A stretch of DNA of 27,694 bases from Nitrososphaerota archaeon (lineage in GTDB: Archaea; Thermoproteota; Nitrososphaeria; Nitrososphaerales; Nitrosopumilaceae), in contig JAQBBT010000100.1 of assembly GCA_032125915.1 (NCBI GenBank), forward strand, positions 1 through 27,694, read 5' to 3'. Position 1 is the stretch's first letter. The number at the start of each line of letters is the position of its first letter. This document shows, in pieces, positions 14,504-16,617 of this stretch. The translations under genes and the position numbers were made by a program. Under the pieces are notes generated by a model that saw only the letters and a list, made by a program, of their open reading frames with translations, ran no database searches and was not told where the DNA came from.

Positions 14504-14524
14504 AGTACGGTATAGTACCGTACT
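14504..14524. promoter_or_regulatory. Perfect inverted repeat AGTACGGTA-tag-TACCGTACT (operator or hairpin) upstream of the microprotein
   Basis: 9-bp arms with a 3-nt spacer, not AT-only. It fills the space between the TATA-like element and the ATG. Confidence 0.6.
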
Positions 14525-14558
14525 ATTAATACTCAGGTAATCTTACAATTACCGATTA

Positions 14559-14622
14559 CGCAGTCAGATACCCCAGGTCATTTTTCTACATTGTTTTCAG
14601 CTGACCTACTCATCATTCTGCG
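14559..14622 (-). ncRNA. Box C/D methylation-guide sRNA (64 nt)
   Basis: Minus strand: CGCAG-A-[AUGAUGA box C]-GUAGGUCAG-[CUGA D']-12 nt-[AAAAUGA degenerate C']-CCUGGGGUAU-[CUGA box D]-CUGCG. The 5-bp terminal stem CGCAG/CUGCG abuts boxes C and D. Intergenic location and typical archaeal size. Confidence 0.82.
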
Positions 14623-14767
14623 ATTAAACCACGATTACTGGGCATAAAGACCTTCAAAATATAATAGAATTTTAAAAACATAAACTGCTCTGTTTGATTG
14701 ACTTTTCACATTTACAAATCATTCTAGCCTAAACTATACAATCGTTTTAGAAGCACAACTGTTTTTA

Positions 14768-14779
14768 AACAAATTTGTT
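14768..14779. promoter_or_regulatory. 12-bp palindrome AACAAATTTGTT immediately after the antiporter TATA-like box (TTTTTAAA, 14762-14769)
   Basis: Self-complementary. The spacing also supports ATG 14790 as the true antiporter start. Confidence 0.4.
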
Positions 14780-14789
14780 CATTGATATC

Positions 14790-16115
14790 ATGCAAAATTA
14801 TGCTTTGCAGATTGATTCTGGTGGAATTCAACAATCATTGAATCAAACTGTTTCAAGTGTGATTGAGCAAATTACTCCAGAACTCTCACATACTACATTT
14901 GTAACTGATCTAGCTTTTATCATGATAATAGGTGCAATAGTAACGCTTGCCTTTTTTAAAATTAAACAACCTCTGATTATTGGTTATCTCTTTGCAGGAA
15001 TGCTGATAGGTCCGTTATCTCCTTTATGGTCTTGGATACTTCCTGATGGTGGTCCTTCGTCTAATACTGTTGGTGGTGTGGGAATTTTATCTGATATTGA
15101 TGCTTTGAACTTGTTTGCTGAAATTGGTGTGATTTTACTACTTTTTGTAATCGGAATAGAGTTTCCATATGCTAAAATCAAAAGTATTGGCAGAGTGGCA
15201 ATTGGTGTGGGTACTATTGGATTAGTCTCTACATTGGGGGTGGTGTTTTATTCTGCAACTGCACTTGGCTTGAACTTTATGGATGCGTTATTCATATCTG
15301 CTGCACTCTCAATTTCTAGTACTGCAATTATTGTGAAAATCTTTGAGGATATGGGCCGAATCAAAAAAGAATCCTCAATTCTTGTTTTAGGTATTTTGAT
15401 TGTAGAAGACGTCATTGCTGTAATTCTAATTTCATCGTTACAATCTATTGCTTTAGTGGGGTCTGTTTCAATAGAGTCAGTTTTGGTTGTAGTTTTAGTG
15501 GCAACGGGATTAATTGTGGGTACATTTACTGTTGGGATCAGAATAATTCCGCCCTTAATTGATAGAGTGGCAGCAACAGAACATCGTGAAATTCTTCTTT
15601 TGAGTGTTCTAGGAGTTTGCTTTGGCTATGCCCTTTTAGCCAATATAGTGGGCTTGTCAGTAGCAATTGGAGCATTTTTGGCAGGAGTGCTTGTCGCAGA
15701 TTCCAAATCTTCTGAGGTGGCTAAAATTTTATCCAGTCCAATCAAAGACATGTTTGTTGCAATTTTCTTTATCTCTGTGGGTGCTTTGATGGATGTTTCT
15801 CAACTTGGAAATTATATCTACATTGCCATAGCATTAATTGCCGTTGCAACTGGAATGAAGTTTGGCGGAAATATGATTGGAAATTTCCTGTTCAGACAAA
15901 AACGTGGGAAATCACTTCGCTCTGCCTTTGCACTGGCTGCCCCACGAGGTGAATTTTCTATTGTAATTATTAAAACTGGAGTAGACATTGGAGCGGTTAG
16001 CGCATTTTTATTCCCTTTAATTGGTGTCATTTCTATAGTAACTGCTTTTCTTTCGCCATTTTTGGTAAAAGCAAGTGACAAAATAGTTCCAGCTTTGCAA
16101 GAAAAAGATGTCTGA
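14790..16115 (+). CDS. Monovalent cation:proton antiporter, CPA2 (KefB/NapA-like), without RCK domain
   Basis: About 13 hydrophobic segments; QP.IIGYL.AGMLIGP, AEIGVILLLF.IGIE, SISSTAIIVK, LIVEDV, GAFLAG, PRGEFS. The ORF track starts at TTG 14775, but ATG 14790 fits the TATA spacing better. Confidence 0.92.
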   Translation: MQNYALQIDSGGIQQSLNQTVSSVIEQITPELSHTTFVTDLAFIMIIGAIVTLAFFKIKQPLIIGYLFAGMLIGPLSPLWSWILPDGGPSSNTVGGVGILSDIDALNLFAEIGVILLLFVIGIEFPYAKIKSIGRVAIGVGTIGLVSTLGVVFYSATALGLNFMDALFISAALSISSTAIIVKIFEDMGRIKKESSILVLGILIVEDVIAVILISSLQSIALVGSVSIESVLVVVLVATGLIVGTFTVGIRIIPPLIDRVAATEHREILLLSVLGVCFGYALLANIVGLSVAIGAFLAGVLVADSKSSEVAKILSSPIKDMFVAIFFISVGALMDVSQLGNYIYIAIALIAVATGMKFGGNMIGNFLFRQKRGKSLRSAFALAAPRGEFSIVIIKTGVDIGAVSAFLFPLIGVISIVTAFLSPFLVKASDKIVPALQEKDV

Positions 16116-16540: not shown

Positions 16541-16617
16541 TGGTGCAGTTACCGGGATTTGAACCCGGGTCACGTACTTGGCAAGCACGAGTACTAACCA
16601 GACTGTACTATAACTGC
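16541..16617 (-). tRNA. tRNA-Gly(GCC), intronless, CCA encoded
   Basis: Cloverleaf: acceptor GCAGTTA/TAACTGC + A + CCA, D-arm GTAC/GTAC, anticodon arm CGTGC-TT[GCC]AA-GTACG, T-arm CCGGG-TTCAAAT-CCCGG. Confidence 0.98.

Follow-up and report, generated by a model that had tools for sequence, protein, structure and literature searches.

A probable box C/D sRNA gene of ammonia-oxidising archaea with a predicted 23S rRNA methylation target beside the peptidyl-transferase ring

Yeast snR38 guides Gm2815 in 25S rRNA. This eukaryotic snoRNA presumably acts on the same strand of helix 74 as the archaeal RNA considered here, beside the GAUAAC of the peptidyl-transferase ring, and we take its site to be the G directly before GAUAAC, which lies some five nucleotides 3' of our predicted cytidine. 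In archaea, the canonical dual-guide box C/D sRNAs (110 families in Pyrobaculum, PMC6009581; sR9 and sR3 in Rfam) have a C/D kink-turn, a terminal stem and internal D'/C' boxes, are about 55-65 nt long, guide on rRNA by the N+5 rule, and have fibrillarin, Nop5 and L7Ae as partners. The described RNAs closest to that reported here with respect to their guides are three C/D sRNAs listed in the supplement of Dennis et al. 2015 (PMC4644070), i.e. Sac-sR128 of Sulfolobus acidocaldarius (...CCCUGGGGUAA before CUGA), MKAsR16 of Methanopyrus kandleri (...CCCCUGGGGUAC before UUGA) and IHOsR425 of Ignicoccus hospitalis (...CUCCGGGGUAG before CCGA). The 23S rRNA at the site reads UACCCCGG in both Sulfolobus and Methanopyrus, with the labels S128, K16 and I425 (with N14) placed at the start of the block (PMC4644070). 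By our own reading of these sequences and of the alignment, the N+5 rule would lead all three sRNAs to the same cytidine of UACCCC, 5' of GAUAACAG. Our literature search found neither a description of C/D sRNAs in ammonia-oxidising archaea, Thaumarchaeota or Nitrosopumilus, nor a usable RiboMeth-seq confirmation of the site equivalent to Escherichia coli 2441 in other archaea; ammonia-oxidising archaea are abundant mesophiles whose guide RNAs are essentially undescribed.

The DNA analysed here, a stretch of 27,694 nucleotides (the window), belongs to an assembly of 208 contigs (33.7% G+C, 82% complete) that encodes an archaeal AmoA, which identifies the host as an ammonia-oxidising archaeon. 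The same assembly encodes fibrillarin (PF01269, 287.8 bits) and Nop5 (PF01798, 234.6 bits) side by side on contig C24, and L7Ae (PF01248, 92.5 bits) on contig C26. On the minus strand of the window, at 14622-14559, lies a box C/D sRNA-like element of about 64 nt, which is crossed by no long ORF in the ORF list for the window. The first-pass annotation had described a terminal stem and boxes C, D', C' and D on this strand, and reading of the sequence places every one of these parts as follows, with a single A separating the 5' stem strand CGCAG from box C:

14643-14657, minus strand: promoter-like element (BRE/TATA-like), UUGAAGG + UCUUUAUG, centred about 24-26 nt before the 5' end of the sRNA
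14618-14622, minus strand: 5' strand of the terminal stem, CGCAG, pairing with 14559-14563
14610-14616, minus strand: box C, AUGAUGA; RUGAUGA in 33 of 33 distinct family homologues
14601-14609, minus strand: D' spacer, GUAGGUCAG, 9 nt; residues 14602-14608 pair with 14574-14580; no target found
14597-14600, minus strand: box D', CUGA, at least 90% conserved
Between the D' CUGA and box C', minus strand: loop AAACA
14585-14591, minus strand: box C', AUGUAGA, degenerate, with U at position 4 where A is expected
14568-14584, minus strand: D spacer, AAAAUGACCUGGGGUAU, 17 nt; guide at positions 2-10, invariant in the family
14569-14577, minus strand: D-guide positions 2-10, ACCUGGGGUA (5'-3' reading CCUGGGGUA), pairing with 23S UACCCCAGG
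14572, minus strand: D-guide position 5; the opposite nucleotide is predicted to be methylated
14564-14567, minus strand: box D, CUGA, invariant
14559-14563, minus strand: 3' strand of the terminal stem, CUGCG, partner of 14618-14622

The element resembles the canonical dual-guide sRNAs in its boxes C and D, terminal stem, length, predicted mode of guiding and encoded protein partners, but differs from them in its spacer lengths (9/17 nt, compared with about 12/12 nt), in having a single targeted guide, in a C' box that is degenerate in its clade and in the pairing of its two spacers with each other. The usual spacer length of about 12 nt is found neither here nor in relatives, in which the spacers are of 8-9 and 14-17 nt; given that a D spacer of 17 nt is also found in the published Sac-sR128, we regard these lengths as a variation within the C/D class rather than as grounds for exclusion from it. 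Boxes C and D are present in all intact homologues. Of the two internal boxes, which might form a K-loop, box D' is a perfect CUGA, and in the C' box AUGUAGA the A of the sheared G-A pair is replaced by U; the aligned C' box is a canonical AUGAUGA in deeper relatives (L049, L051, L052 and L056).

A strict scan of the 1.31-Mb assembly for box C, box D and a stem of at least 4 bp returned 8 sites, compared with 1-4 when box C was scrambled, and the further requirement of a D' CUGA left 3 sites genome-wide, compared with 0; because these counts exceed those for scrambled box C, the element is not a chance arrangement of boxes. The terminal stem, moreover, has undergone compensatory two-sided changes in 4 of its 5 pairs across relatives, the variants including GCAG/CUGC, CACAG/CUGUG, GUAG/CUAC, CUGG/CCAG, CGAGG/CCUCG and UUGGG/CCCAG. 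Among 33 distinct sequences, pairing is maintained in 93.8% of cells, compared with 37% or less after sliding of the partners; six pairs are changed on both sides, and none of 500 shuffles reaches the observed covariation. The minus-strand segment 14622-14559 is very probably a genuine box C/D sRNA gene.

Comparison with Rfam was a check proposed by the first-pass annotation. A permissive search produced matches to five C/D snoRNA/sRNA families (snoR160, snR60/Z15, SNORD102, sR9 and sR3) with exactly the ends of the sRNA, but none of these attains its threshold, the best scoring 20.6 bits against 42; since no gathering threshold is reached, the sRNA falls in no described Rfam family. At gathering thresholds the window contains only a tRNA. 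This sole above-threshold Rfam match is a tRNA-Gly(GCC) gene at 16544-16617 on the minus strand.

The host assembly contains no assembled rRNA, and we therefore took the 23S sequences from the 23S genes of three genomes of the same genus. All three read UUACCCCAGG followed by GAUAACAGG. Positions 2-10 of the D guide form nine Watson-Crick base pairs with UACCCCAGG, which lies immediately 5' of GAUAACAG, with mismatches at guide positions 1 and 11; the predicted energy of the duplex is -18.7 kcal/mol. A match of at least 9 bp just before this conserved segment had been proposed from the guide alone, with two of its nine pairs, against the E. coli sequence, being G-U wobbles; the nine pairs hold, the match being perfect in all three congeners, but the wobbles are not needed, as the congener target is Watson-Crick throughout. 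Alignment with rrlH places GAUAACAGG at E. coli 2447 and confirms the site that had been predicted by counting from box D, the N+5 nucleotide being the equivalent of E. coli 2441 (position 2533 of the congener 23S).

Taken alone, a 9-bp match is only suggestive, being equalled by shuffled guides in 15 of 200 trials. The comparison with the sister family is more informative. In four 23S genes from two genomes of that family the target reads UACCCUAGG within UUACCCUAGG, and the sister-family sRNAs end ...CUAGGGUAU before box D, compared with ...CCUGGGGUAU in the family of the window, such that a C-to-U change in 23S at the E. coli-2443 equivalent has its counterpart in a G-to-A change at guide position 7. 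For two genomes, G138 and G100, guide and 23S come from the same genome, and duplex energies indicate that each guide binds its own 23S best. Counted from box D, pairing always starts at position 2 in both families, and the N+5 pair is invariant. We consider this covariation of guide and target to be the decisive evidence for the predicted target.

These observations are consistent with a mechanism of the established type, in which boxes C and D and the terminal stem would form a kink-turn on which L7Ae, Nop5 and fibrillarin would assemble, guide positions 2-10 would pair with UACCCCAGG, which forms the 3' strand of helix 74 and immediately precedes the peptidyl-transferase-ring sequence GAUAACAG, and fibrillarin would 2'-O-methylate the cytidine opposite guide position 5 (the second C in UACCCCAGG). 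That the gene is transcribed, that the RNP assembles and that the cytidine is methylated are steps that we infer from sequence comparisons. To the reading as a whole, i.e. that of a stand-alone gene for an archaeal box C/D sRNA of about 64 nt that guides 23S methylation by this mechanism, we assign a probability of roughly 0.78.

The same guide sequence could, in principle, serve a different end. It appears to be that of the natural partner strand of helix 74, so that its binding would compete with rRNA folding, and a real C/D sRNA might act mainly as a folding chaperone in large-subunit assembly, keeping the 3' strand of helix 74 transiently bound, with little or no methylation. Catalytic efficiency could be lowered by the degenerate C' box and by the departure of the spacers from standard length, and chaperone roles for archaeal sRNAs have been discussed (PMC4644070, PMC6009581). 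An antisense role, however, needs neither a register that is exact from position 2 in both families nor an invariant box D and N+5 pair, and for these reasons we judge a predominantly chaperone function to be improbable, and methylation guiding to be the better account of the conserved features.

With respect to its neighbours, the sRNA lies head-to-tail with a small ORF of 35 aa, across a gap of 58 nt, and this ORF is followed on the same strand by a 530-aa coiled-coil gene, a head-to-tail order that had been noted in the first description of the locus; on the other side of the sRNA is a divergent Na+/H+ exchanger gene (14775-16115, plus strand). This position upstream of the ORF, together with a conserved hairpin and a palindrome in the intervening DNA, raises the question of whether the element is a leader or attenuator acting in cis on the microprotein and coiled-coil genes. 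In an alignment of 19 relatives, however, a block TTGAAG-GTCTTTAT upstream of the sRNA is conserved while its flanks vary; in view of archaeal promoter geometry, UUGAAGG-UCUUUAU may be a BRE/TATA-like promoter that would place the start at the terminal stem. The sRNA thus has a conserved promoter-like block of its own at the right distance, a separate TATA-like box precedes the ORF, and a cis-acting role would leave the covariation with 23S rRNA unexplained. Such a role, and likewise a fortuitous set of boxes, the expectation for which is low in the genome-wide scan, therefore has very little to commend it compared with a stand-alone sRNA gene.

The DNA between the sRNA and the ORF has features of its own. 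A few nucleotides past the sRNA 3' end, the hairpin GGUAAU-UGUAAG-AUUACC (14536-14553, minus strand) persists in relatives, one genus having it in compensated form (GGUUAU/AUAACC); it may serve in 3' processing or termination, or may insulate the sRNA from the promoter that follows. The block GUAUUAAUAGUACGGUAC(C/U)AUAC, at about 14508-14531 (minus strand) before the ORF at 14501-14394, is invariant across the whole family and contains a TATA-like box and the dyad AUAGUAC-G-GUACUAU. The 35-aa product of the ORF is Cys2-His2-like and has no Pfam match.

BLAST searches located the locus in 15 of 18 genomes of the same genus and in three other genera. A covariance model (R1), built from the alignment of same-genus and related sequences, matched 20 of 23 genomes of the family and 4 of 23 genomes of one other family. 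A second, broader model (R2), applied to genomes that are at least 90% complete, matched 104 of 108 genomes of the family and all 10 of those from the sister family, but none of 32 genomes from other sampled families of the class. The element is thereby conserved across more than 110 genomes, nearly always with one strong match per genome. Within the alignment, boxes C, D' and D hardly vary, and neither do the two spacers, while the D'-C' loop and the flanks do; conservation of the boxes in relatives, on which the original proposal depended, is accordingly borne out, with RUGAUGA in each of the 33 homologues and an unchanging box D.

An exception within the genus is instructive. The copy in genome G016 (L015:1537-1605, minus strand) carries seven substitutions, all at otherwise invariant positions, which alter box C to GCGAUAA and box D to CAGA, along with the guide, C' and stem. 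From its sequence this copy looks like a decayed gene in one species, and its decay implies, by contrast, that these positions are under selection elsewhere. The covariance models detected no sRNA in three complete genomes of the family (G024, G081 and G255), and a box-plus-guide pattern did not find it in two of the three; when five complete genomes lacking a model match were searched by pattern for an analogous guide, again nothing was returned. These three genomes are possible natural losses of the sRNA. Their 23S genes (L098, L099 and L100) retain an identical target, UUACCCCAGGGAUAAC, from which it follows that in these organisms the modification, if it exists, is dispensable or is otherwise guided, and the occurrence of complete genomes without a detectable sRNA implies that the guide is not indispensable. 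The decayed copy and the three genomes without a detected copy offer natural comparisons.

The second spacer presents a different picture. The first-pass annotation could name no target for the D' guide, and we found none either, there being no match of at least 9 bp in 16S rRNA, 23S rRNA or 31 tRNAs. A design in which the two guides address the two strands of one rRNA helix was considered and rejected, as the natural partner strand lacks complementarity to the D' spacer. Exact complements of the D' spacer occur elsewhere in the genome once, compared with 4.3 times expected by chance. The complementarity AGGUCA/UGACCU within the sRNA, raised previously as a possible alternative fold, is real, but it is better read as a conserved helix than as an alternative. 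Within the family, the register in which the D' spacer pairs with D-spacer positions 7-13 is constant; 95% of positions are paired in it, compared with at most 68% in other registers, to give an internal helix of 6-7 bp whose pair 7/12 occurs as C-G, A-U, G-C and U-G. A formal covariation count gives 97% pairing for this helix, and RNAalifold predicts it unaided, from an alignment made without regard to the helix. Within the genus the D' spacer is almost unchanging; in the sister family it is not conserved. From these sequence comparisons we take the D' spacer most likely to be one strand of a conserved internal helix and not a guide.

The near-invariance of the D' spacer in the genus would also be expected of a true second guide for an RNA outside our target set (an mRNA, another non-coding RNA or a product of an unassembled region), to which the internal complementarity would be incidental. 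Orphan guides are common, amounting to 28% in Pyrobaculum (PMC6009581), and the host genome is only 82% complete. Set against this are the lack of a 9-bp match in 16S, 23S and 31 tRNAs, the deficit of exact genomic complements, the shortness of the spacer (just 8-9 nt), its lack of conservation in the sister family and, in particular, its co-change with D-spacer positions 10-12, which are taken as lying outside the rRNA contact. A second guide is accordingly unlikely in our view. The lack of a D' target, the covarying D'/D-spacer helix and the degeneracy of C' in this clade together suggest a single-guide sRNA whose second half has turned structural.

In the free RNA, the 9-nt D' spacer and the 5' extension of the long D spacer would form a helix between the two box motifs, which the rRNA duplex would open. 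As a hairpin the internal helix amounts to about -7 kcal/mol, i.e. it is far weaker than the rRNA duplex, so the rRNA target can displace it. Whether the helix has a function beyond structure is more speculative. Because it occupies positions 2-8 of the D' guide, the place of a substrate, it might act as a built-in pseudo-substrate for the half of the symmetric RNP that is not used, as well as a mask, in a self-gated single-guide C/D design, an idea that we hold only tentatively and regard as doubtful. If gating occurs, the helix would mask positions 7-10 of the active guide, and 23S would enter via a 5-nt toehold (positions 2-6) and displace it, with better specificity or timing of methylation as a potential benefit in mesophilic archaea with few guides. 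Cytidine 14577 (minus strand) lies opposite D' spacer position 5 in the internal helix, i.e. at N+5 of the intramolecular 'substrate', and its self-methylation is conceivable.

Returning to the published sRNAs, the D guides of Sac-sR128, MKAsR16 and IHOsR425 end ...C(U/C)GGGGUA(N) directly before box D, the same core as in the sRNA of the window, with which Sac-sR128 also shares the 17-nt length of its D spacer. They derive from hyperthermophiles of other phyla, the rest of their sequences, including the D' guides, is unrelated, and no D'/D-spacer helix has been reported for them; nor could a relationship to any of the three be detected by the covariance models used here. The existence of published sRNAs with the same guide core means that the target site had already been predicted and is apparently widespread in archaea. 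Prediction of the same site in Sulfolobus, Methanopyrus and Ignicoccus points to an old and widely kept archaeal rRNA modification. The present sRNA is thus a further case of a known class, with a mildly unusual, single-guide and self-paired architecture. What it adds is a nearly universal single-copy guide in two families of ammonia-oxidising archaea, together with a testable prediction, namely that the cytidine of helix 74 equivalent to E. coli 2441, next to the peptidyl-transferase ring, is 2'-O-methylated. With the covariance model, the gene can be annotated in hundreds of genomes.

The strict scan also returned further box C/D-like candidates on other contigs of the host, at C122:2768-2810 (minus strand), C189:752-813 (plus strand) and C47:5499-5551 (plus strand), whose D guides match congener 23S over 8-9 bp at positions 1395, 396 and 202, respectively. 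In the C122 candidate the D' spacer is likewise short, and it is rich in U, a hint that single-guide designs may recur in this genome.
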